DNA of 64,000 nucleotides from a virus, in the IMG/VR virus record IMGVR_UViG_3300028008_000005, positions 32,001 through 96,000 of that record, one strand, 5' to 3'. Position 1 is the stretch's first letter, and each line of letters begins with the position of its first letter. The notes beneath the pieces were generated by a model. It saw nothing but the letters and a program-made list of their open reading frames with translations, was not told where the DNA came from and searched no databases. Position numbers and translations under genes: made by a program. Shown here in pieces: positions 31,985 to 61,577 of this stretch.

Positions 31985-32008
31985 GGGAGACTTCGGTCTC
32001 CCTTTTTT
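31985..32008 (+). terminator. intrinsic terminator with CUUCGG loop (T-tract on the + strand)
   Basis: GGGAGAC-TTCG-GTCTCCC-TTTTTT between convergent genes. Confidence 0.9.
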
Positions 32009-48486: not shown

Positions 48487-51400
48487 ATGGCAATAAATCT
48501 AAACACTGATCCGTATTATGACGACTTTGATAATACCAAAGGGTTTCATCAAATACTCTTTAAGCCAGGTGTTGCTGTACAAGCGAGAGAATTAACCCAG
48601 ATTCAATCTATTCTTCAGAATCAGATTAAATCTTTTGGTGATAACATCTTCAAAGAAGGTGCTCTTATTCAAGGTGGTCATCAATCTCTAGATACCCAGT
48701 ATCACTCAGTTAAGCTAACTGCCGCTGCGGATTCAATTGTATTGTCATTAATTGATCAAGAGGTATATGGACTAAAATCCGGTATTAAAGCTAAGGTTGT
48801 TAATGCTACCCAAGCGACCGCGGCAGGCGATCCGCCAACTATCTTTATTAAATATCTAAACTCAGGTAAAAGTAAAGAAAAATCCGGATTTGCTCAGTCT
48901 GAGATAATATGGAACGAGGCTAAAACTGTCTCCGTTACTACTGCGGCTACTTCTGTAAATTCAGTTGGAACAGCTTATACCATGACAAACGGTATCGTAT
49001 ATGCTGGAGGATTCTTTGTATACTTTGCTGATCAGACAGCTATCCTAAACAAATATGGTCCAATCACCAACATTATTGTTGGATTCGATGTTAAGCAAAC
49101 GATTAAAGATTTTACAGACGACTCTAGCCTAAATGATCCAGCTAACGGATCATTTAACTATGCTGCTCCTGGTGCTGATCGTCTTCAAGTAGCTCTTACA
49201 CTTACAAATAGACCTTGGCAAGCTGATAATGTAGTTGATCCCGATTTTATAGAAATCGCTAGAATACAAAATAAAAAAGTTATATCTGCTGTAACAAGCA
49301 CTGCATATAATATTCTAGGTGATACCCTTGCTCGTCGCACATATGACGAGTCAGGCGATTATGTAGTTCGTCCATATGATCTTTCAATGGTAGAGCATAA
49401 AAGGACATCGCTATCTGTAAACGATGGATACTACACTGCTGCCGAAGGTGGTGATGCTAATAAGTTTATTAATAAGATCTCCCCTGGTAAAGCTTACGTT
49501 AAAGGGTATGAGATTGATAACGTTAAAAGCGCAGCTATAGCTGGAGACAAGGCAAGAGATACAGCATTAGTAGAATCAGGATCGGTGTACACCCCATTTG
49601 GTAACTATGTTCGTGTTACCAATATTAATGGTGTATCAGAAGAAATAGACAATCTTCCTGAAGTACAGATATACAGCCAATTTACTTCTACCCCGGGTGT
49701 ACCAGAAGGAATAGCAATCGGTACTGCTCGTATTCGTCATACAGAATTCTTTTCTGGTACACCAGGAACAACTACTGCCCAGTATAACGTTTACCTCTTT
49801 GATATTAAGATGAGGACTGGATTTTCGTTTACAAACGATGCCAAGCAAATAGTCTATATTAATTCAGTATATTCTTCTGACTTTACTGCTGATGTTGTTG
49901 AAGAACTATCTAACCTAACAGGTACTATATCAACCGTTGGAGCTTCCCAAACAATACAAGGTATTGGTACACGATTCCTTACAGAATTGAGTATAGGCAA
50001 CTATATCAATATAGATGGGGATACACATCGTGTTACTACAATAATTGATGATACAGGAATTGAAGTATCACCAACGCCCACCCAGAGTCGGTCAGGCTAT
50101 GTATTCTCATCTGTAAAGTCTAAACTATGGAATACCGATAGGAATTCATACATATTCCCCTTACCAGTTAATATTGTTAAGTCAATTGATCCAAGTGGAG
50201 TAGATACGGTATACGAGACTCGAAGAATATTTGAAAGAACTTTAACAGCAGGTGTAGTTCAAGTAGATGCAGGCGTTAACGAAAGCTTCTCATCCGAATC
50301 ACTTGATAATATGCAGCTATATGTTTCTAATGGAGATGTTGTAGATATAACTGGCGACGTAACAATATCTGGTGCAGCAAATACAGTACTCACAATAGAC
50401 ATATCAGGTCAAGGATATACAACAGAAACAGTTATGCTAATTGCTACTGTTTCAAAAAATGGTTCGGCTGCTGACAAAAAGACTAAGTCTCTGCAAGCGA
50501 ATCAACAGCTTGACATCCTAACAGAGGCAACATCGACTGCTCAAAGCATCTCTTTAGGTAAGGCAGATATTTATAGATTAGTCTCTGTTAAGATGACAAC
50601 AACCGGTGTATTCGGTGATGCATCGTATAACAGTACAACAGAAGTTGATATTACTAATCGTTATACCCTTGACAACGGTCAAAAGGCAACATACTACGGA
50701 TTAGGTTCTCTTCGACTAAAAAGTGGATCAAATGCACCTACAGGGCCAATCCGTATTACCTTTGACTACTTTACACATGGAACAGGCGACTACTTCTCTG
50801 TTGATTCATATACTATTGACTATAAGGATATTCCAACTCTTATTCTAGGTGGTAACGAGTACGTACTTCGAGACTGCTTAGATTTCAGACCTAAGATTAA
50901 CGATGCTGGTACCGGCTTCTCTGGTGCTGGATCAAGCGTTGGTGAATTCCCAGACTTTGAAAACGATATTACTACATCATACGAGTATTACTTACCACGA
51001 ACAGATAAGATTGTTATCAATCGCGATGGTCGTATTAAGGTAATTAAGGGTGAAAGCGGATTCGAGGCAAAAGAGCCTACCACACCTGAAGACTCAATGG
51101 CTTTGTATATCCTTAAACAAAAGCCATATGTCTTTAATATATCTACAGATATTGATATTGTTAAAATTGACAACCGACGCTTTACTATGCGTCAAATTGG
51201 CAAGTTAGAAAATAGAATTAAAAATATCGAATACTATACTTCTCTTAACCAGCTTGAGGTTGATACCCAGAACTATCAGATTAAGGATATTAATGGATTT
51301 GATAAGTTTAAGAATGGCTTTGTTGTAGATTCATTCCAAGGTCACGGGATAGGAGACGTATATAACCCCGACTATGGTGTTGCAATCGATTATGATAAGA

Positions 51401-53727
51401 GAGAACTTAGACCTCTATGTAAGACTGAGGCATTTACCCTAAAAGAAGTTGCAACCACAGACGCTGAAAGAGCTGCAGCTGGATATGCTAAGACTGGGGA
51501 TTTGTACACTCTTCCATATACAGAAGAGAGACTAATCTCAAATAATAGATCTTCTAAAGTAGAGAATCTAAACCCATATGACGTGGTATCTTTCCGGGGT
51601 AAGATGAAAGGTAAGCAATCCGACATATGGATTGATACGATTCGTCTTCCGGATCTTCCAGTATCTGTTGACAACTATTCTTCTCTTACTGCTGATGCAA
51701 AGGCAAAGGGAACATATGGCACAGTTTGGGGAGCATGGGAAACAGTCCATTTTGGTACATATCAAGGAACACAAGAAATTGGAACCCGAGTAGGTACTGA
51801 AACAACCTACACTGAAGAGATTACAACAGAAACAAAACATGATATAGTAAGATCTTCTTCTGTTATAGCTAAAATGAGAGATGTTTCTATTAACTTTGAG
51901 GCAGAGGGCTTAATGCCTGACACCAGAATGTACATCTTTATGAATAATCAAGATGTTACTGCAGATTGTAAATCTACTTTGTTATACGATCATGATCTTG
52001 TAGCTGGTGATTCTAATACAACTATTAATGCTTTTGGGCAGCAAGGGAAAATGCTTGCTACAGATGATAACGGAAAGCTAAAAGGTACATTCCATTATTC
52101 TGCAGAAAAGTATAATTGGAACACCGGATCATATATTATTCGAATGACCGATGATTTTGAAAATAATCCAACATATGAGTTTACTGCTGCAGAAATGACG
52201 TTTACCTCTTCGGGAGAACTTCATAATATACAAAATGAAATCGTATCAACACGAAATGCTATTGTTACTTCTAAGCCTGTTATTGAAAAGTCATCAAGAA
52301 CAGACTATTTTGAAAGCGGTAAGCTTAAGAGCAAGTCTTGTAAAGGATTTGATCTATATGAAGAAAAATACGACGGGTCTGGCGGTACATACGAAGTCCT
52401 TATAGATGCAAAGAATATTGGTGTATGTGGATATGTTAAGCCTATTATAACCCCTACCCCAATCGAGCCAGATAACCCTGTAGTTGTACAGACATGTCCG
52501 GCCGGTGGAACAATACTTGATACCTATTGTGATGCTGTTACCTTTAATCTTATGGCAACAGTAGCTGCAGGACCTGATGGTAATGGGAATTGCACAACAA
52601 CAACAGTTATTACCGAAACTGGTTCTACCCAATGTACACCAGTTAGCCCGTGCGATGTTGCTGGAACCCTAGCTCAGACGTTCTGTAAGAATCAAACAGA
52701 TCTATGGGGTCAATACTTTGACGGTACATACAACTACGTTACTGGGGATTGCAACACTTACCAATCCTTAATAGAAGCGAATAATGTTGAAGACTGTAAA
52801 TATATACTTCATACTGCTTATGGTGTACCTACTGGTAACACTGAATGCTACCAGCCTGGATTTATTAAGTATGTAGAATATCACGATGGACTTGGTGGAA
52901 CATATAAGAACATTGAAGAATACGGTTCAGTAGAATGTGGATATGTAACTCCGGCAGTAATCGCAGCAGCTGAAGCTGAGGGCGAAGTTGTTACACAGGA
53001 AGAAAAAGATCTTGCTGAAACATATGATCCTGCTGATCCTATTGCAGCTGGTACACATAATCGTTATGAGTGTCGCGGCGTTGATTACTATGAAATGATA
53101 GCTGATGGAAACTGGGGAGAAACTGCAGTTCTAATTGAAGCTAACTCTGAGTTCTACTGTAACTATACAGTTCCTAAAGATACAATCTTTATTGAAACCT
53201 TTGTCGATCTAGATCCAGACGACGATGATGACGGCGACTTAGATCCTCCACGAGCTCAAGTTGTAGATACCGTTGGATTTATAGGTGGTGTATTTAACTA
53301 TGCATTTGGTAGAAACCTTACAGAAGCAGAAAGAGGAGAAGCTCAGGCTTATTTCGATGCTAACGGTATTACAGCAGACACCCTAGCAAATGCAACAACG
53401 TCTGGCTCTAACATTACTAATGGATATATTGATGCTGACGTTGTCCCTGATGCTTATAATGCAGACGCAGAAAAAGTAGCACTTGCAGTAAAAACCATGA
53501 TTGAGGTTGGTGTAGCTAGGGGATATGGAAGTGATTCAGATGCATCTGTAACCAATTATCTAAATACTGTTGAAGGTGCAAATGTAGAAACTCTTTCAAA
53601 CCAAATTGCTATTCAAGCAATTACAGCTGCTACACACATAGATAACCCTGCGATAGACGAAAGCTGGGCAAAAGAGGCTGTTAGGCTTCTTATAAATAAT
53701 ACTGAAACTGGCGGAAGCCTGGTATAA
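48487..53727 (+). CDS. large virion structural protein (DUF4815/VrlC-like), N-terminal part
   Basis: PYYDDFD, VQARELTQIQ, ARRTYDESGDY, RFTMRQIG, FKNGFVVD. Confidence 0.8.
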   Translation: MAINLNTDPYYDDFDNTKGFHQILFKPGVAVQARELTQIQSILQNQIKSFGDNIFKEGALIQGGHQSLDTQYHSVKLTAAADSIVLSLIDQEVYGLKSGIKAKVVNATQATAAGDPPTIFIKYLNSGKSKEKSGFAQSEIIWNEAKTVSVTTAATSVNSVGTAYTMTNGIVYAGGFFVYFADQTAILNKYGPITNIIVGFDVKQTIKDFTDDSSLNDPANGSFNYAAPGADRLQVALTLTNRPWQADNVVDPDFIEIARIQNKKVISAVTSTAYNILGDTLARRTYDESGDYVVRPYDLSMVEHKRTSLSVNDGYYTAAEGGDANKFINKISPGKAYVKGYEIDNVKSAAIAGDKARDTALVESGSVYTPFGNYVRVTNINGVSEEIDNLPEVQIYSQFTSTPGVPEGIAIGTARIRHTEFFSGTPGTTTAQYNVYLFDIKMRTGFSFTNDAKQIVYINSVYSSDFTADVVEELSNLTGTISTVGASQTIQGIGTRFLTELSIGNYINIDGDTHRVTTIIDDTGIEVSPTPTQSRSGYVFSSVKSKLWNTDRNSYIFPLPVNIVKSIDPSGVDTVYETRRIFERTLTAGVVQVDAGVNESFSSESLDNMQLYVSNGDVVDITGDVTISGAANTVLTIDISGQGYTTETVMLIATVSKNGSAADKKTKSLQANQQLDILTEATSTAQSISLGKADIYRLVSVKMTTTGVFGDASYNSTTEVDITNRYTLDNGQKATYYGLGSLRLKSGSNAPTGPIRITFDYFTHGTGDYFSVDSYTIDYKDIPTLILGGNEYVLRDCLDFRPKINDAGTGFSGAGSSVGEFPDFENDITTSYEYYLPRTDKIVINRDGRIKVIKGESGFEAKEPTTPEDSMALYILKQKPYVFNISTDIDIVKIDNRRFTMRQIGKLENRIKNIEYYTSLNQLEVDTQNYQIKDINGFDKFKNGFVVDSFQGHGIGDVYNPDYGVAIDYDKRELRPLCKTEAFTLKEVATTDAERAAAGYAKTGDLYTLPYTEERLISNNRSSKVENLNPYDVVSFRGKMKGKQSDIWIDTIRLPDLPVSVDNYSSLTADAKAKGTYGTVWGAWETVHFGTYQGTQEIGTRVGTETTYTEEITTETKHDIVRSSSVIAKMRDVSINFEAEGLMPDTRMYIFMNNQDVTADCKSTLLYDHDLVAGDSNTTINAFGQQGKMLATDDNGKLKGTFHYSAEKYNWNTGSYIIRMTDDFENNPTYEFTAAEMTFTSSGELHNIQNEIVSTRNAIVTSKPVIEKSSRTDYFESGKLKSKSCKGFDLYEEKYDGSGGTYEVLIDAKNIGVCGYVKPIITPTPIEPDNPVVVQTCPAGGTILDTYCDAVTFNLMATVAAGPDGNGNCTTTTVITETGSTQCTPVSPCDVAGTLAQTFCKNQTDLWGQYFDGTYNYVTGDCNTYQSLIEANNVEDCKYILHTAYGVPTGNTECYQPGFIKYVEYHDGLGGTYKNIEEYGSVECGYVTPAVIAAAEAEGEVVTQEEKDLAETYDPADPIAAGTHNRYECRGVDYYEMIADGNWGETAVLIEANSEFYCNYTVPKDTIFIETFVDLDPDDDDDGDLDPPRAQVVDTVGFIGGVFNYAFGRNLTEAERGEAQAYFDANGITADTLANATTSGSNITNGYIDADVVPDAYNADAEKVALAVKTMIEVGVARGYGSDSDASVTNYLNTVEGANVETLSNQIAIQAITAATHIDNPAIDESWAKEAVRLLINNTETGGSLV

Positions 53728-53748: not shown

Positions 53749-55548
53749 ATGTCATATAATGTCGTAGATCCTTTAGCTCAATCTTTTCTTGTTGAGGATA
53801 CCTGTGTAGTTACTAAGGTAGAATTATTCTTTAAGAATATAGACAGAAAGACCCCTATGAGGATTCAGTTAAGGGATATGAAAGACGGATTCCCCGGAGA
53901 TTATATTATTCCTCTTTCAGACAAGTTTGTATATCCTAAAAATATATCTACCTCAGCTGACGGGTCCAAGGGTACTATAGTAAGATTTGATAGCCCTGTG
54001 TTTTTAAAGAAAGGCGAATATGCTCTTTGTCTCGGTTCTGATTCAAAGAAATATACCGTGTTTATATCTGAGCTAGACACTACAGATCTGATTACTGGTA
54101 AAAGAATTATTAAGCAGCCTTATCTAGGATCCCTGTTCAAGTCCCAAAATACCTCAACTTGGACACCCGAGCAAATGCAGGATCTTAAGTTTAGTATTTT
54201 TAAAGCTAAATTTGATACAACTGCAGCTGGTAGTATTGATTTCAATGTTAACAATTCCCTTATGGAAACACAAGTCCTAGAAGAAGATCCTTGTCAGACC
54301 TTCTCAGGGTCTACCACAATGAGGGTAAACCATTTTAATCATGGTATGACTGATGGATCCTATGTTAAGTTATCTGGTATTGCAGAAGTAGATAAGGTAT
54401 TCGGAACAACTGGAACTATACATGGTGTAGACTTTACAAATGTATTGAATACAGCTCTAGTAATAGCAAACGCTAGTCTTAACGGATATACTGTTACACT
54501 CCCTACTGCAGCAAATGCTGATGCTAGATTTGGAGGAACTCGAGTAACCGCTACGGAAAACATTGTAGTAAATGCTCTATACCCTATTACATCTAAGATT
54601 GAAGAAACAACTACACAGGTCCAGCATTTATTTAAAGGGACTTACTCTGATTACTCTCAGGATCTAGCCTACACTGTTCTTGAACCTGGCACAACTGAAT
54701 TATCTAAGTCTAGAATTATTACTAACTCGACTACTAAAGCAGAAAACCTATCAGGAGCAGATTCGTTTAGTTATAGAATTGGTTTAAGCTCTCAGAATAC
54801 TAGACTATCTCCCGTAATCGATCAGCAGCAGCTTGGGGTATTAACAGCACAAAATTTAATAAACAACCCAGACGAATCAACTGAAAATCCATTAACAGAA
54901 GACCTTATAAACTTTATGACTTCTGTGGCTTCTGTAACATTTACAGCTGTTACAACAACTTCCGGAATACTTACGGTACCCCTGGCACAACAAGATGCTG
55001 CACTTAAATTGATACCAGGAACAACAGCATATATTACTGATTCTAATACTACCAATACTGGGACTTATCGTATATCAAATATCGCATCTAATGGTGATGA
55101 GATATTATTTACTAAGATTTCAGGTACATGTGCTACTAATACTGGAACATATACAATTTCAATTGGTAGAAACTTTGTTGCTGAAGAAGCTCCTTCTGGC
55201 GGTTCAGTATACTCTAAGTATATTACTCGTAAAATTGACTTTGCTAATCCGTCTACGTCGATTAACCTTAGATTAGATGTTAATCGGCCGGCGGGATCAA
55301 ACATTAAAGTATTCTATAAGTCAAGCCTAGTTGGTGAATCTGATGATATTGCAGAGAACGAATTCAAACACATTGATGCCTTAATACCTATTCTGCCGGT
55401 ATCTCTAGACAAGAAATTCCAAGAAGTAGAGGTAGAGCTACTTGATCTTCCTCCTTTTGAAAGCATCGTATTTAAGATTGCATTTACATCAACAGATTCT
55501 GCTAGTGTACCTAAGTGTAAGAATCTAAGGATCATAGCGTTAGCATAA
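53749..55548 (+). CDS. virion structural protein (C-terminal part of the DUF4815-like family)
   Basis: DPLAQSF, LGSLFKSQN..TW, SKYITRK, LRIIAL. Confidence 0.75.
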   Translation: MSYNVVDPLAQSFLVEDTCVVTKVELFFKNIDRKTPMRIQLRDMKDGFPGDYIIPLSDKFVYPKNISTSADGSKGTIVRFDSPVFLKKGEYALCLGSDSKKYTVFISELDTTDLITGKRIIKQPYLGSLFKSQNTSTWTPEQMQDLKFSIFKAKFDTTAAGSIDFNVNNSLMETQVLEEDPCQTFSGSTTMRVNHFNHGMTDGSYVKLSGIAEVDKVFGTTGTIHGVDFTNVLNTALVIANASLNGYTVTLPTAANADARFGGTRVTATENIVVNALYPITSKIEETTTQVQHLFKGTYSDYSQDLAYTVLEPGTTELSKSRIITNSTTKAENLSGADSFSYRIGLSSQNTRLSPVIDQQQLGVLTAQNLINNPDESTENPLTEDLINFMTSVASVTFTAVTTTSGILTVPLAQQDAALKLIPGTTAYITDSNTTNTGTYRISNIASNGDEILFTKISGTCATNTGTYTISIGRNFVAEEAPSGGSVYSKYITRKIDFANPSTSINLRLDVNRPAGSNIKVFYKSSLVGESDDIAENEFKHIDALIPILPVSLDKKFQEVEVELLDLPPFESIVFKIAFTSTDSASVPKCKNLRIIALA

Positions 55549-55799
55549 TGTCATTAGTTAAAGTAAAACCATTTGACGGTTATGAACATCTTCTAAAGGA
55601 TACTCGGAATAAAGCTGTGATTAACCAAGACGATAAGGCTTTTTCTGATTATGTTTCAAAAAGAAATAAAATCAGAGAAGAGGAAGCTTTTAAATATAAT
55701 ATGGAAACCCAGATGCAAGATGTTGAATCGGATATAAATAATATTAAGTCCGATTTATCTGATATTAAGAATCTGCTTACTGCATTAGTAAATAAATAA
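55548..55799 (+). CDS. small coiled-coil protein
   Basis: TAATG overlap; C-terminal heptads. Confidence 0.6.
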   Translation: MSLVKVKPFDGYEHLLKDTRNKAVINQDDKAFSDYVSKRNKIREEEAFKYNMETQMQDVESDINNIKSDLSDIKNLLTALVNK

Positions 55800-55810
55800 T
55801 AGGAATCACA

Positions 55811-56767
55811 ATGTCTGTAGCACTCACACTTCGTAGTGTAAAAGGTACCCGACTAACTAATACAGAAGTCGATACTAACTTTAGTAATATTAGCACAGAA
55901 CTTGATCTTAAAGCACCTATTAATAATCCGGTCTTTACTGGATCAGGTCAATTTACTGGTGCTTTAACTGTAGACGGCGATCTAGAAGTATCAGGTACAA
56001 CCACCTTTGTTAACGTACAGAATCTTGGTGTTGCTGATACCATGATCTATGTTAACCAACGAACAGAGGGAACACTAACTGCTGCTTCTGGTGATGGAAC
56101 CAATGTAACATATACAGTTGATAATAACTATGTTGTAGGGGACTTCCTCGTTGTACAGGGTGTTACCCCAGCGTCTTTTAATGTTAACGGAGCATTGATT
56201 ACCGCAACTACAGAGACATCAGTTACAATTGCTTCAACAAATACAGATACATATGTGTCTGGTGGTTCTACCTATGCTAAGACCTATGTTAATCTAGATC
56301 TTGGTTTAGCAGGGGGATATAATTCAGACGGTACAGCAGGCGGGTATGCACACACTGGCGTATTTAGAGATGCTACTGACGGCGGAACTTGGAAGTTCTA
56401 TCAGGGATATACCCCAGAGCCTTCAGCTGGTGTTGACATTAATACGAGTCACGCTAGCTTTGCTCTTGCGCCAATCGCTGGATCAACAATATCAGCAACA
56501 GACTTTAATTCAACGTCTGATATTAGTTTAAAGAAAAACGTGAGAGTTATAGAAAATGCTTTAGATCTGGTAAACAGACTAGAAGGCGTAAACTTTGAAT
56601 GGAAAGATTCCTCCAAAGCTGCTATAGGTGTAATTGCTCAGCAGGTAGAAGAGGTAGTTCCAACTATTGTTAATACAGGTTCAGATGGAATTAAGAGAGT
56701 ATCATATGACTCGCTTATTCCTATACTCATCGAGGCAATTAAAGAGTTATCAGCTAAAGTCAAATAA
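55811..56767 (+). CDS. tail fibre protein with C-terminal peptidase S74 chaperone domain
   Basis: LTNTEVDTNF; SDISLKKN, GVIAQQVE, LIEAIKEL. Confidence 0.8.
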   Translation: MSVALTLRSVKGTRLTNTEVDTNFSNISTELDLKAPINNPVFTGSGQFTGALTVDGDLEVSGTTTFVNVQNLGVADTMIYVNQRTEGTLTAASGDGTNVTYTVDNNYVVGDFLVVQGVTPASFNVNGALITATTETSVTIASTNTDTYVSGGSTYAKTYVNLDLGLAGGYNSDGTAGGYAHTGVFRDATDGGTWKFYQGYTPEPSAGVDINTSHASFALAPIAGSTISATDFNSTSDISLKKNVRVIENALDLVNRLEGVNFEWKDSSKAAIGVIAQQVEEVVPTIVNTGSDGIKRVSYDSLIPILIEAIKELSAKVK

Positions 56768-56801: not shown

Positions 56802-57182
56802 ATGGCAATAAAGGTATCAGGCACTACGATTATTGATGATAATCGTAATCTTGTCGACGCCAATGTCAGGGGTAAAAAACAGGATCTAGGTAGCATCTCT
56901 GGTGTAATATCACTAGATATGAATGATGGCGAAACTGTTACAGCAACCATTACTGGCAATACTACATTCACTGCTACAAATATTGTTAGCGGTTCTGTAA
57001 ACACTATTTTCTTTTATCTAACTAATCCTGGGACAGGAACAATTACCTGGCCACCAACTACTACTTGGGACAAAGGAAATTATCCAGTACTTAATTCCTC
57101 CGGTAAGACTCTGATTATTCTAGAATCATACGATAACGGATCAAATTGGTTAGGTGTTCAGGCTTGGCGTCAAAACGCATAA
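56802..57182 (+). CDS. tail-fibre-associated protein
   Basis: AGGAG RBS; MAIKVSGTTIIDD; ITWP..W. Confidence 0.6.
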   Translation: MAIKVSGTTIIDDNRNLVDANVRGKKQDLGSISGVISLDMNDGETVTATITGNTTFTATNIVSGSVNTIFFYLTNPGTGTITWPPTTTWDKGNYPVLNSSGKTLIILESYDNGSNWLGVQAWRQNA

Positions 57183-57191
57183 GGAAATATA

Positions 57192-59156
57192 ATGTCACGT
57201 AGATTCTGGTTAGGTACTCCAAAAGGGCAGTACACGTCAGCTGTTACTAGCTTTCTTACATCTAGACTGACTAATACAACTTTTAATACTTCAGCTCCTA
57301 CGCTAACTCCTACTACTTTTATAACACAGTGGTATACACCTACACCTACGTCAAATTTAACGACTACAACCTATAACACCTTATTTACTGATCCTGGTAT
57401 TGATACTGAATACTCAAGCTCTTTTATAACAAATTATATTACTAACTTTGCGAATGTTGTACCAACTGCGTTTGCTGAAACCACAATATATTCCCCGACT
57501 AGTAATCAAACGTTTAAGGGTAATTATAACACAGATATTTCTACAACTATAAGTCCTGGCACAACACAATATACTGTGCCTACTACATCTACTAGTTTTA
57601 CATCTGGCACAACACAATATACTGTGCCTACTACATCTACTAGTTTTACACCTGGTACAACACAATATACTGTGCCTACTACATCTACTAGTTTTACACC
57701 AACGGCAACTGTGTACACTAGTTATACGCCAACGGCAACTGTGTACACTAGTTATACCCCAACTCCAACTAATTATACTTATTTTTATACCTATCCCACT
57801 CAATATTTACAACCAACTAGTCATCCTACAATTAGCACTACTTACGTTACTCAGGATATTTATCAGCCCACAGAATATTCACAAAATACGACTGTTGCTG
57901 GATATTTCTATACTACATTTACAACGACAACAACATCATATACATATCCCGATTCTGCATCCGGATGCTACCTATATAATGTAGACGGATCGCCGGCCGG
58001 TACATCAGGAGACACGGTACCAAGTAACTGCTCTATTGTATCTTGTACTCCGGCCCCCAACGGCGATACATATTCTACTGGAAATGTATTTACTGATTAT
58101 CCTTATTCTCAAGCAACCTTTTATGTGTCAACATATATTTCTACACAAACAACATATACCACAACATCTTCAAACACTTACGTGGGAAACGGCCTAGGTG
58201 CTCCCCCGTTTGGGGGTTGTTATCCAGAAATAGATGCAGCCGAATATTGCGCAAGTCCTGAGTCTAACTGTTATCCTTGTGCGATCTATGAGGTTACTTC
58301 CACAATCGCCACGTCATATGCTAATTACCCTGTTAGTGTTACAGTATATTATAATTCAGGTTATACCCTTCCTCAGTATACACAAGTTACTTATTTATCA
58401 GCATCTTGTCTAGATTGTAGTTTAACGTGTAATACCACTGAGGAGATTATCGCTGCTAATCCAACTGGAGGATACGTAGCACCTAGCTCTAGAAATACAT
58501 CTTATAATGTAAATACAGTTATCGGTAACACAATTAATACTAATTTAACGCCCACTGAAACATACTATGATTCCGGTTATTATGTTAATACCCAGGGTGA
58601 GGGATATAATGTTACTTCAACGCAGTATACCAGCTTTACCCCAGGTACAACGCAGTATACTAACCTTACACCAGGTTCAACGCAGTATACTAACCTTACA
58701 CCAGTTCAAGAAACAAGGTTTGATCCAACAACATATACTAGTTTTACAACAGTTCAAGAAACAAGGTTTGATCCAACGACATATACTAACCTTACACCAG
58801 TTCAAGAAACAAGGTTTGATCCAACGACATATACCAGTTTTTCTACTACTGTTAGCTCCTTATTGGAAACTACTACATATCAAACTGAAACAGGTATAAC
58901 AACGTCGTTTAGAGATACTGATTATCCTACTAGTAATCCTACTTCAAAAACGACTACAACTACTTTCTTACAGAATACAGGTGCTACTTCATATGAGGTT
59001 CCAACGTCGAATCAGACTACAACTACATATGATACCGATACTTTAACCCAGCAAGAAACATCAAGAGATACCGAGGTTATTACAACTTGGTTAACAGATG
59101 ATGACATAACAACATCATTTACGACTTCTAGGTCTACGACCTGGTTCACGCAATAA
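57192..59156 (+). CDS. Thr/Tyr-rich repetitive fibre-like protein with Cys-rich centre
   Basis: 654 aa; 16- and 10-aa repeats; lies in the fibre cluster. Confidence 0.7.
   Translation: MSRRFWLGTPKGQYTSAVTSFLTSRLTNTTFNTSAPTLTPTTFITQWYTPTPTSNLTTTTYNTLFTDPGIDTEYSSSFITNYITNFANVVPTAFAETTIYSPTSNQTFKGNYNTDISTTISPGTTQYTVPTTSTSFTSGTTQYTVPTTSTSFTPGTTQYTVPTTSTSFTPTATVYTSYTPTATVYTSYTPTPTNYTYFYTYPTQYLQPTSHPTISTTYVTQDIYQPTEYSQNTTVAGYFYTTFTTTTTSYTYPDSASGCYLYNVDGSPAGTSGDTVPSNCSIVSCTPAPNGDTYSTGNVFTDYPYSQATFYVSTYISTQTTYTTTSSNTYVGNGLGAPPFGGCYPEIDAAEYCASPESNCYPCAIYEVTSTIATSYANYPVSVTVYYNSGYTLPQYTQVTYLSASCLDCSLTCNTTEEIIAANPTGGYVAPSSRNTSYNVNTVIGNTINTNLTPTETYYDSGYYVNTQGEGYNVTSTQYTSFTPGTTQYTNLTPGSTQYTNLTPVQETRFDPTTYTSFTTVQETRFDPTTYTNLTPVQETRFDPTTYTSFSTTVSSLLETTTYQTETGITTSFRDTDYPTSNPTSKTTTTTFLQNTGATSYEVPTSNQTTTTYDTDTLTQQETSRDTEVITTWLTDDDITTSFTTSRSTTWFTQ
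57555..57758 (+). repeat. 3x48 nt then 2x30 nt tandem repeats
   Basis: PGTTQYTVPTTSTSFT x3, PTATVYTSYT x2. Confidence 0.9.
58641..58844 (+). repeat. 2x30 nt then 3x48 nt tandem repeats
   Basis: PGTTQYTNLT x2, PVQETRFDPTTYTSFT x3. Confidence 0.9.
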
Positions 59157-59166
59157 GGAGCATTAA

Positions 59167-59676
59167 ATGTTATATGCAAGAATAAACAAAGAAACTGACG
59201 AGGTCTTAGAGTTTCCCATAACAGAAAAAGAGCTTCGCAATGCTCTTTTAAACACCTCTCTGCCATCTAAAATTACCTCAATGACCCTAGCTGGTACTGC
59301 TTATGTATTGGTTCCCCCGATTCATCCAGATCAGCTTACTGTTCAGGCAACTGCTGAAATGGCTATTGAGCCTGTTGGTTGTTCAAAAGATCCTGAAACA
59401 AAAGTCTGGATAAGAGAATATGGATTGGTAGAAGTACCTGAAGGTGGTCGTTTACAAAGGCTTGCCGGCCGATGGAATTATATACGAACAAGAAGGGATA
59501 GAGTTCTTAGGGCTATCGATTGGAGAGTAATAAGAAACCAAAGAGAGATTGCTTTAGGCCTTACTCCTACAGACGATATAGATACTCTATATGCTAAGGC
59601 ACAAGAGATGGCTGATATTACAGATTCACATGAAGATCCGTTCTTAATTGATGCTAGTACTATAACTATAGAATAA
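59167..59676 (+). CDS. tail fibre assembly chaperone-like protein
   Basis: WNYIRTRRDRVLRAIDWR...DIT motif. Confidence 0.65.
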   Translation: MLYARINKETDEVLEFPITEKELRNALLNTSLPSKITSMTLAGTAYVLVPPIHPDQLTVQATAEMAIEPVGCSKDPETKVWIREYGLVEVPEGGRLQRLAGRWNYIRTRRDRVLRAIDWRVIRNQREIALGLTPTDDIDTLYAKAQEMADITDSHEDPFLIDASTITIE

Positions 59677-59710: not shown

Positions 59711-60754
59711 ATGGAAGTAAAAACAAATATGGACCCGTATGCGGCTTATTCTCCTGCAAAGGAAGAAAAAAAGCCTAAGATTGAACCTAAAATTGCCCCT
59801 CGATTATCTGATCAGCTTATGTCTGACGAAAAGACGTTCGGTTCTGGTAAGATAGGTCCATATATCTCAAGATCTAAAAGAAACAATTGGGCTACTGATC
59901 AAGAAGCTACTCTTCGCGAAAAGTGCCCAGATTTCTATTATATCTCCTATGATGTTTCAGCAAATCAACCTAACAACTTCTCAGAATATTGCTACACTGA
60001 ATTCCCAGCTGGTGGACTTTATAGTTCCACACAATCACGCGAGATTAATTGCAGATTAATTGATTTTGCATCTAAGGAAGAATCAGGTTTAAAAGGAGAA
60101 GAAGCCCTTACTCATTTTATTGATTCCCTGTCTGATAAATACGATCTTCTTGATATAGAAGAAAAATATCAAGGTATAAATCATGTTGTCTTTATGCCAG
60201 GTCATAATCTTTTAGACTTAGCTGATGTTGACTATGTCCTAAGACTTATAAATGAAACCGATGATGTATATCTTAAGCCACACCCTCTAACTGTAGGTGA
60301 TGCAGTTCACGGTTTAGCCGGTAGAGTTGGATGGAATAAAATCTTGCCAAAGGATGCTTCTGGTGTAAAGTTACTTCAAAACTGTACCCATGTTTATACA
60401 ACAACTGCATCTGAATTCTCTATTACTGGAGCTGCTCTTGGTAAGGCTGTTATTAATATCTCTAAATATCAATCAGAGGGAGCTGGAGTATATCAACCAT
60501 TCTCGAGAGTATTAACGATTGCCCAAAGACGTCATGGCACTGAAGAAGCAAAAAGGTTACTAGGTAATATACTGGCATGTAAGTGGTCTGGCCTCTATTT
60601 TGAGTGGCAGGATGATGTCGAGGAAAGAATGGATGCTTACTTTACTAAAACCCAAGAGCTTCGCGAGCTGTACCGCCCATTAGCACAGGGTCGTGGCGAT
60701 ATTGATAAAGGTGCTAAAAAAGTCCCAGTTAAGGCTGTAGCTGGAAAGAAATAA
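59711..60754 (+). CDS. putative GT-B / capsule-synthesis-like glycosyltransferase
   Basis: VYLKPHP and VYTTTASE...AALGKAV resemble KpsC/KpsS-type motifs. Confidence 0.45.
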   Translation: MEVKTNMDPYAAYSPAKEEKKPKIEPKIAPRLSDQLMSDEKTFGSGKIGPYISRSKRNNWATDQEATLREKCPDFYYISYDVSANQPNNFSEYCYTEFPAGGLYSSTQSREINCRLIDFASKEESGLKGEEALTHFIDSLSDKYDLLDIEEKYQGINHVVFMPGHNLLDLADVDYVLRLINETDDVYLKPHPLTVGDAVHGLAGRVGWNKILPKDASGVKLLQNCTHVYTTTASEFSITGAALGKAVINISKYQSEGAGVYQPFSRVLTIAQRRHGTEEAKRLLGNILACKWSGLYFEWQDDVEERMDAYFTKTQELRELYRPLAQGRGDIDKGAKKVPVKAVAGKK

Positions 60755-60783: not shown

Positions 60784-60984
60784 ATGTCAATAGTGGAAGG
60801 TAAAGGACACCCAGAAGTAGCAAGACGAATTGCTCTTTGCGGAAGATGTGTTCATCTTATACCTCATATGAACGTATGTAAAAAGTGCGGATGCTTTATG
60901 CCCGCCAAGACAAGATTATCCGGAGCTCGATGCCCAATAGGTAAATGGGAAAAAATCGAGATAAAAGATATAACAGAAGAATAG
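60784..60984 (+). CDS. small Cys-rich protein (DUF6171-like)
   Basis: CxxC...CKKCGCF...CPIGKW. Confidence 0.65.
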   Translation: MSIVEGKGHPEVARRIALCGRCVHLIPHMNVCKKCGCFMPAKTRLSGARCPIGKWEKIEIKDITEE

Positions 60985-61530: not shown

Positions 61531-61577
61531 AATACGTATAAATAGTAACTATATACTAAGAATCTTAAGTAGAATTT

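Follow-up and report, generated by a model that had tools for sequence, protein, structure and literature searches.

Length-matched, mirror-ordered repeat arms point to an out-and-back fold in a putative fibre protein of an uncultured marine T4-like myovirus

How does a fibre-like protein fold when its two halves carry repeats of the same sizes in mirrored order, and how could such a protein change its length? This question is raised by a gene in the 64,000-nucleotide (nt) stretch of viral DNA analyzed here (the window), which spans positions 32,001 to 96,000 of the 114,689-bp IMG/VR virus record IMGVR_UViG_3300028008_000005. A single open reading frame (ORF) at 57192-59156 of the window, on the plus strand, encodes a Thr-rich protein of 654 amino acids (aa), named Q below, whose length is denoted L and whose residue numbers are used unless another protein is named. 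An AAGGA ribosome-binding site lies 7 nt 5′ of the ATG, and the stop codon of the upstream gene is located 9 nt before the gene. The protein consists of 27.8% Thr, 10.6% Ser, 9.6% Tyr, and 7.2% Pro, with one His residue (0.2%). Comparisons among relatives and the strand boundaries of AlphaFold2 models support a hairpin in which the chain would run outward and return antiparallel to itself, and we consider Q probably a late, virion-associated fibre or needle of this out-and-back kind, belonging to the tail-fibre module of an uncultured marine T4-like myovirus.

Tandem Repeats Finder placed four arrays in the gene, all on the plus strand. In the N half, a 48-nt unit present in 3.0 copies (57555-57700, 96% matches) is followed by a 30-nt unit in 2.8 copies (57687-57770); in the C half, a 30-nt unit in 2.9 copies (58618-58704) precedes a 48-nt unit in 3.0 copies (58696-58841, 89% matches). 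The 16-aa units hence come before the 10-aa units in the N half and after them in the C half, confirming the mirror order that a sequence-only reading had described, but the two copies per 10-aa array counted in that reading become close to three in each arm. The same reading took the units of the two halves to differ in sequence; they are indeed not the same, but a PGTTQYT core is common to the 16-aa unit of the N half and the 10-aa unit of the C half. The idea that the C-arm repeats are reverse complements of the N-arm repeats was ruled out when the consensus units were compared by eye. The two termini do resemble each other as had been noted, with TSFLTSRLT at residues 19-27 and TSFTTSRST at 641-649, and the centre between the repeat arms is Cys-rich, with 10 Cys residues located within residues 259-413.

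The search of 5.8 billion clusters returned 17 relatives of Q, and among 1.84 billion cluster representatives a profile search picked out only 8, all of them members of the Q family, which is too few for the deep alignment that co-evolution methods need. Scans of viral and metagenome contigs contributed one further length class, represented by L001 (588 aa). Together, the cluster members and the contig scans provided a comparative set of 50 unique full-length relatives of 407-655 aa, all of which have an MSRR/K start and a C-terminal T(S/Q)xxTxW(F/Y/L)T ending. Beyond this set, Q matched no family in Pfam, PHROG, or NCBIfam even at E values up to 1, and the family profile had no match in a PDB sequence search. 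Searches with tblastn and megablast against 50,697 phage records found nothing, with the low-complexity filter on and with same-genome or near-genome records possibly left out. The ESM Atlas holds the Q sequence with no usable neighbours, and the literature searches found no description of the family. The family is tiny and metagenome-only.

The lengths of the two arms were compared by using the invariant residues G266 and C413 as anchors, so that the N part is the stretch before the central domain and the C part is the stretch after it. Lengths of 142-265 aa for the N part and 116-241 aa for the C part occur across the 50 relatives, but N minus C stays at 22-27, mostly 23-24, in 40 of them, including the most divergent at 25% identity. 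The rule is obeyed by 22 of the 23 representatives of database-defined clusters. In 12 comparisons between relatives, the changes of the N and C parts were equal within 2 aa (+16/+16, +11/+10, +10/+10, +16/+16, +32/+32, +16/+16, +42/+42, +33/+34, +33/+32, +8/+7, -42/-44, and +3/+4); several comparisons share one reference sequence and hence are not all independent events. The full set of 12 was reproduced by none of 1,000,000 permutations of the C-arm changes. On a tree inferred only from the central domain, phylogenetic contrasts gave r = 0.999 without ten rare variants, which are described below. The repeat counts of the two arms had been expected to co-vary in homologs; they do so between lineages, whereas the ten rare variants vary in one arm. 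Independent variation of the arms, the outcome that the sequence-only reading had named as refuting its hairpin, does therefore occur, but within three repeat-bearing clusters and not from one lineage to another.

The changes in length are also located at corresponding places. Relative to P0005, Q carries an insertion of 48 aa in each arm, at N 121-168 and C 499-546, and insertion pairs are likewise seen in P0002 (N 121-162, C 490-531), P0003 (N 120-135, C 469-484), and P0014 (N 73-88, C 448-463). These four pairs lie within 1-2 residues of the line i + j = L + 14, on which residue i of the N arm faces residue j of the C arm. The pairs of P0015 (N 44-53, C 482-491) and L001 (N 123-136, 14 aa; C 465-480) are 6-7 residues off the line, and that of P0007 (N 148-157, C 455-464) is 20 off, its gaps falling inside tandem 10-aa arrays where placement is ambiguous. 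Six of the seven clean pairs are thus at mirrored positions, with i + j about L + 14. The insertions occur at several depths, and in these six pairs, P0007 being the exception, the distances from the centre rise together in the N and C arms, which is the signature of an antiparallel arrangement; in a parallel one, one distance would fall as the other rises. The order of the units outward from the centre is the same in both arms in four architectures, namely 10,10,10,16,16,16 in Q, 10,10,10,16 in P0003, 10,10,10,10 in P0007, and the interleaved 10,10,10,16,10,16 in P0002. Since the mirrored order recurs in relatives with other architectures, the mirror arrangement goes beyond chance.

These results bear on the possibility that the arms are flexible Thr/Pro linkers, perhaps O-glycosylated and mucin-like, around a Cys-rich domain, with lengths drifting freely by slippage and a mirror that is incidental. 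Such linkers would fit the composition (28% Thr, 7% Pro), the arm predicted local distance difference test (pLDDT) scores of about 25, and the repeat-count differences in one arm among near-identical variants, but free drift does not keep N minus C within 22-27 in arms that each range over more than 120 aa, nor does it place matched insertions at mirrored sites or match all 12 length comparisons. Moreover, the terminal segments are the best conserved and carry invariant Thr residues in register, some relatives have mirrored Cys pairs within the arms, and a glycosyltransferase identity for the neighbouring 347-aa protein found no support in Pfam, NCBIfam, or PDB sequence searches, all at the sequence level only. 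We regard the linker explanation as very unlikely.

The out-and-back arrangement is also visible at the level of single residues. Conserved Thr residues on the N side at positions 15, 19, 23, 27, 33, 37, 45, 49, 53, 80, and 92 have partners on the C side at Thr 653, 649, 645, 641, 635, 631, 623, 619, 615, 588, and 576, respectively, each pair summing to 668 = L + 14. In total, 11 of the 17 conserved N-side Thr residues are mirrored, compared with 7 matched by the best parallel offset, and the single irregular step of 6 residues is mirrored as well. Alignment-free Thr scans showed a peak at L + 13 or L + 14 in 9 of 17 sequences. The sum-668 register sets the TSFxTSRxT motifs exactly opposite each other, F21 to R647 and R25 to F643, and therefore explains why the same motif is found at both ends of the protein. 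Column conservation is symmetric too, with N/C values of 0.89/0.90 for the termini, 0.59/0.59 for the arms, and 0.74/0.77 for the inner strands.

Cys residues follow similar lines. In P0049, the pairs (204,342), (209,337), (250,296), and (267,279) all sum to 546, and two further pairs, (136,385) and (171,349), sum to 521 and 520; at least four Cys pairs fell on one line in 0.33% of random-placement trials. An extra pair in P0013 (221,308) sums to 529, on the protein's own line of 528-530, with an equivalent pair in P0014 and P0047, and the extra pair of P0050 lies within 3 of its own line. Cys259 and Cys406 are lost jointly in P0049, P0051, and P0052, which carry instead a mirrored Cys pair further out in the arms. 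The inner Cys pairs of Q sum to 693-696, which sets a turn near residue 348, between C343 and C353. From this pattern, the mirrored Cys pairs would be disulfides. The sequence-only reading had proposed that a change in fibre length would need matched changes in both arms, and the constant N-C difference, the equal insertions at mirrored sites, and the mirrored Thr and Cys residues all support this proposal.

A conventional parallel trimeric fibre, built as a triple β-helix or β-spiral with a distal C terminus and with the arrays as independent shaft segments, is the build of most characterized phage fibres, and tandem repeats of 10-16 residues are typical of fibre shafts. Such a build, however, predicts neither equal changes in two segments, nor mirrored unit order, nor nested Cys pairs. 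In Q, the C terminus matches the N terminus in conservation, whereas the distal, receptor-binding end of a fibre usually varies, and neither an S74 domain nor any other known fibre domain was found in Q in the Pfam and PHROG scans; PF13884 is present in the 318-aa neighbour. The parallel build is thus most improbable for Q.

Structure prediction supports the centre of the hairpin and leaves its outer parts without confidence, so that the antiparallel contacts predicted by the sequence-only reading gain indirect support. The AlphaFold2 model of Q has a mean pLDDT of 43.7, with residues 210-460 at 55-87, and contains confident strands at 196-235, 238-262, 280-336, 361-429, and 432-472, of which the first two have pLDDT values of 49-85. 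The strand boundaries mirror each other, with 196 + 472 = 668 and a sum of 667 for the breaks between strands at 236/237 and 430/431. In P0051, a relative of 407 aa, the pLDDT is 71-91 over residues 126-293, and two 49-residue strands, 161-209 and 237-285, are related by 161 + 285 = 209 + 237 = 446, which is the sum of its Cys pairs. The low-confidence outer strands of P0051 (99-110 and 307-318) give a sum of 417, the same as the Cys pair (91,326). With either model as the query, neither Foldseek against the PDB and BFVD nor a wide VIA-align search rose above noise (best Z 4.5 and 3.9); as monomers whose arms have low confidence, the models could not have revealed a needle-like trimer. The best Foldseek matches, weak ones with E values of 0.005-0.05, were to the lysenin, aerolysin, and anthrax protective antigen pores and the phi29 tail knob, and VIA-align placed residues 182-264 of the P0051 model on the lysenin hairpin with a Z of 2.0.

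The matching lengths, mirrored insertions, Thr, and Cys require only that N and C arms pair antiparallel, and phage fibres are usually oligomers, so the N arm could instead pair with the C arm of another chain, in a head-to-tail or domain-swapped oligomer with no fold-back. Several features argue against this. AlphaFold2 reverses the chain at the mirror midpoint in two family members, with long strands on either side; a Cys-closed loop of 9-11 residues stands at the reversal, formed by C343/C353 in Q and C217/C229 in P0051; and Gly and Pro, residues typical of turns, abound at the midpoint. In addition, two chains paired straight and antiparallel would double the length and make both ends equivalent, a poor fit with one conserved attachment end. 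We consider pairing between chains unlikely, and we infer that the arms of Q pair within one chain.

In the out-and-back arrangement that we propose, residues ~14-262 would run outward from a 13-residue N-terminal overhang, and residues ~406-654 would return antiparallel, residue i lying opposite residue 668-i (L + 14 - i). The overhang, residues 1-13 (57192-57230, plus strand as for all parts of the gene), has the sequence MSRRFWLGTPKGQ and no mirror partner, because the register i + j = L + 14 leaves exactly those 13 residues over. It is the best-conserved stretch of the protein, with a mean column identity of 0.97 in the long clade and 0.87 across the whole family, and is likely the unpaired point of attachment. 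Residues 2-8 of this stretch, SRRFWLG (57195-57215), look like a twin-arginine motif. Twin-arginine (Tat) signals have an S/T-R-R-x-F-L-K motif followed by a hydrophobic h-region; in Q, the stretch behind SRRFWLG, TPKGQYTSAVTSF, is not hydrophobic, and a Tat signal was rejected. SRRFWLG is read as a coincidence or a binding peptide.

The outgoing arm would begin with a conserved strand (residues 14-110, 57231-57521) that has Thr at every fourth residue and holds TSFLTSRLT, followed by three 16-aa modules (residues 122-169, 57555-57698) and about three 10-aa modules (residues 170-199, 57699-57788, delimited from the array and the protein sequence). Its inner end, residues 200-262 (57789-57977), comprises AlphaFold2 strands and ends at Cys259. 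At the junction, the outgoing strand would form a 17-residue bulge, residues 263-279 (57978-58028), with the invariant G266; across it the pairing register moves from ~668 to ~694-696, and the bulge together with a six-Cys cluster would make up the junction. Past this point, a further hairpin, residues 280-343 against 353-413, would be held by cross-strand disulfides, with its outgoing strand at 280-336 (58029-58199), containing Cys280 and Cys285, and its returning strand at 364-413 (58281-58430), containing Cys406, Cys409, and Cys413, the strand assignment coming from AlphaFold2 and from the nested Cys pairs. The tip loop between them, residues 337-363 (58200-58280), includes Cys343, Cys353, and a CxxC of Cys360 and Cys363; the midpoint of the inner register is at ~residue 348, and AlphaFold2 predicts a turn and a short helix at 346-353. 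The disulfide or metal knob that had been imagined at the tip is accordingly not a separate knob in this arrangement; the Cys-rich part would be a junction and then a further hairpin, with the tip at ~337-360.

The returning arm would mirror the outgoing one, starting with its inner end (residues 414-473, 58431-58610), where the boundaries of the AlphaFold2 strand 432-472 mirror those of the N side. About three 10-aa modules (residues 474-503, 58611-58700) and three 16-aa modules (residues 504-551, 58701-58844) follow, and a conserved strand, residues 558-654 (58863-59153), again has Thr at every fourth residue, contains TSFTTSRST, and finishes in a near-invariant TTWFTQ end. The return arm would thus end beside residue 14, so that both ends of the chain would be proximal to the phage and the middle of the sequence would be the distal tip, probably facing the receptor. 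By analogy and from its context, Q is probably a trimer and its tip may bind the host.

Two features of the tip loop deserve mention. Two quite different sequence types of the loop (58200-58280) occur within the clade of 554-655 aa, GAPPFGGCYPEID..AEYC and DPDNG..DCYPSSDP..AYC, the second of which is also found in the short clade; these types possibly mark a host-range switch region. The CxxC at Cys360/Cys363 (58269-58280), on the returning strand, is invariant in the family and, alone among the Cys pairs, has no mirror partner; in an oligomer, it could act as a metal site or as a site between chains.

The arrangement would constrain how the protein evolves. The arms would be assembled from 10- and 16-residue modules, each N module facing a C module of equal size, and durable lengthening or shortening would occur only by equal changes at mirrored places in both arms. 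Replication slippage in the tandem repeats would yield variants changed in one arm, and only matched forms would last between lineages. The strongest form of the proposal is that the whole polypeptide is one giant modular β-hairpin, alone or as a trimeric six-stranded needle, which would be a fibre architecture and evolutionary mode undescribed in phages; we offer this form tentatively, judging it slightly less probable than its opposite.

Several observations weigh against the proposal. The outer arms of Q and P0051 have pLDDT values of about 25 in AlphaFold2, and the ESM Atlas model of Q has a pLDDT of 0.33. The register is L + 14 at the termini but L + 10 or L + 11 at the Cys pairs of the arms, and across mirrored columns no peak of residue-property co-variation was found at 668, the 22 sequences compared being too few. 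Both arms have a proline every 8-10 residues, which is odd for continuous β-strands; with prolines so regularly spaced, the pairing may not be a simple ribbon, and the true geometry is uncertain. The fibre role of the family, in turn, is drawn from the gene neighbourhood. The most direct objection comes from ten rare variants, on 12 of the 72 contigs in three repeat-bearing clusters, that differ in one arm. When these variants were included, contrasts on all 50 sequences gave r = -0.415, a value dominated by the zero-length branches leading to them, and the r = 0.999 obtained by dropping them depends on a choice made on the trait itself. Strict arm matching is therefore not obligatory, unless the variants are assembly collapses.

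The one-arm variants are near-identical to the common forms and are off by one or two whole units. In the cluster of Q, 37 contigs carry the form with three 16-aa units in each arm, (3,3) in N,C notation, and the forms (3,2), (2,3), and (1,3) were found on one contig each, five contigs being unmatched in all. The P0007 cluster has 16 matched and 6 unmatched contigs, and the P0002 cluster 7 matched and 1 unmatched. Nine of the ten variants are deletions relative to the dominant form, and clusters without tandem repeats contained no one-arm variants. These variants are either slippage intermediates, which selection would remove or compensate for, or collapsed short-read assemblies of the 30- and 48-nt repeats; both possibilities are compatible with a constraint on matched arms, and neither fits free drift.

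The assignment of Q to the virion as a fibre, which we infer from its surroundings, follows from a block of genes placed behind the baseplate genes. T4-like baseplate genes (gp5, gp6, and gp8-like) and VrlC-like genes lie upstream in the window, and the Q gene is located 1.6 kb downstream of the VrlC-like genes, flanked by fibre-like genes. By gp6, the nearest isolates are the pelagimyophage HTVC008M, Mosig, and the Melnitz methylophages, at only 38% identity. The block encodes, in order, a 318-aa S74 fibre protein, a 126-aa fibre-like protein, Q, and proteins of 169, 347, 66, and 178 aa, and the order is identical in the relatives L001 and L006. The 318-aa protein (55811-56767, plus strand, as are the neighbours below) has a C-terminal Peptidase_S74 chaperone domain (PF13884, E 4.6e-14) and matches many PHROG tail-fibre families, and the 126-aa protein (56802-57182) matches phrog_7760, ‘tail fiber protein’, at E 1e-10, being a neighbour kept in L001 and L006. 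Directly 3′ of Q, the 169-aa protein (59167-59676) matches phrog_8716 (E 6e-5) and phrog_4912, ‘tail fiber assembly’ (E 7e-4); its match to PF16778 (E 0.16) is under the curated cut-off, and its position is kept in L001 and L006. On this weak sequence evidence, it is a possible candidate for a dedicated fibre assembly chaperone. The 347-aa protein (59711-60754) matches phrog_26179, of unknown function, at E 3e-54. The 66-aa Cys-rich protein (60784-60984) matched DUF6171 below threshold, with 21.4 bits where the cut-off is 27 (E 3.3e-4).

Ahead of the block, a T4-type late-promoter-like site, TATAAATA, is present at 55733-55740 on the plus strand, and the 318-aa fibre gene is the first gene after it. 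The next plus-strand occurrence of TATAAATA is at 61537, so that the two sites bracket the block. Since the window contains no more copies of the motif than chance would give, the site is only a lead. In the VrlC-like region, two ORFs 21 nt apart, 48487-53727 (1746 aa) and 53749-55548 (599 aa), match successive parts of phrog_358, at profile positions 4-1241 and 1420-1603 of 2056, respectively. By these matches, the VrlC-like baseplate protein is encoded in two pieces, and the split looks native and not broken because ORFs of matching size stand at the same place in L001 and L006. In most pelagimyophage genomes, the genes that follow VrlC encode the tail fibres, and their region is named the ‘host recognition cluster’ (PMC7029224). 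The region is known to be hypervariable, and long-read metagenomes show many structural variants in it (PMC12379486). The Q gene has the same position as the host recognition cluster of pelagimyophages and cyanomyophages, downstream of VrlC-like genes. The papers on this cluster describe collagen-like, YadA, concanavalin, and Mtd-type domains, and not the Q family (PMC7029224, PMC12379486).

An out-and-back chain had been thought to set this protein apart from usual fibres, but the needle of T4 gp37 (domains D10 and D11), known from a crystal structure, is already built in this way: residues 882-931 and 960-1009 make up its stem, and the receptor-binding tip, 932-959, separates these two segments in the sequence (PMC6957217). 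The collar of T4 gp37 is split as well, into 811-881 and 1010-1026, and seven iron atoms coordinated by histidines lie along the needle stem (PMC6957217). This needle is the closest analogue of Q, with a nested out-and-back course, equal arms, and a tip in the middle of the sequence, features that in Q come from comparative evidence. Like the proposed role of Q, gp37 is a fibre protein of a T4-like myovirus, and it is chaperone-dependent. The two proteins have no sequence or profile similarity and no recognizable fold match, the latter as judged from monomer models. In T4 gp37, the hairpin is a C-terminal domain with arms of 50 residues; in the Q family, it would be the whole protein, with arms of 116-265 aa, those of Q being about five times longer than those of gp37. 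The gp37 needle is held by His-coordinated iron along the trimer axis, whereas Q has one His and would use a Thr ladder and Cys pairs. Modular units of 10 and 16 aa with evolving copy number have, to our knowledge, not been described for T4 gp37. Q is therefore not a member of the gp37 family, and the two would have the same topology.

The stems of lysenin, aerolysin, and anthrax protective antigen and the phi29 knob are also two-stranded antiparallel hairpins tens of residues long. The hairpins of the three pore proteins form membrane barrels with 40-50 residues per strand, and Q shows no sign of membrane insertion. The likeness to the pore toxins and phi29 is one of shape only, with scores far below significance.

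A fixed difference between the arms over a 1.6-fold size range is an unusually clean natural experiment, and the comparison of arms reveals fold topology, register, and a likely disulfide map where structure predictors fail. If the proposal is true, the out-and-back principle is not confined to the 50-residue arms of T4 gp37 but also shapes an entire protein whose arms reach 265 residues. At the rise of 3.3-3.4 Å per residue of an extended strand, the ~170-310 residue pairs found across the family would correspond to 55-105 nm when fully extended, and two-hit evolution would adjust the length by 3-5 nm at a time, in that one-arm slippage would leave a tolerated mismatch that is then compensated by a matching change in the other arm. 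The candidate one-arm intermediates in environmental assemblies would make this a tractable case of compensatory length evolution. Both termini would be attached to the phage, with the middle of the gene encoding the receptor-binding tip; the predicted receptor-binding site, at residues ~337-360, bears on how the host range of abundant marine myoviruses is read from metagenomes.

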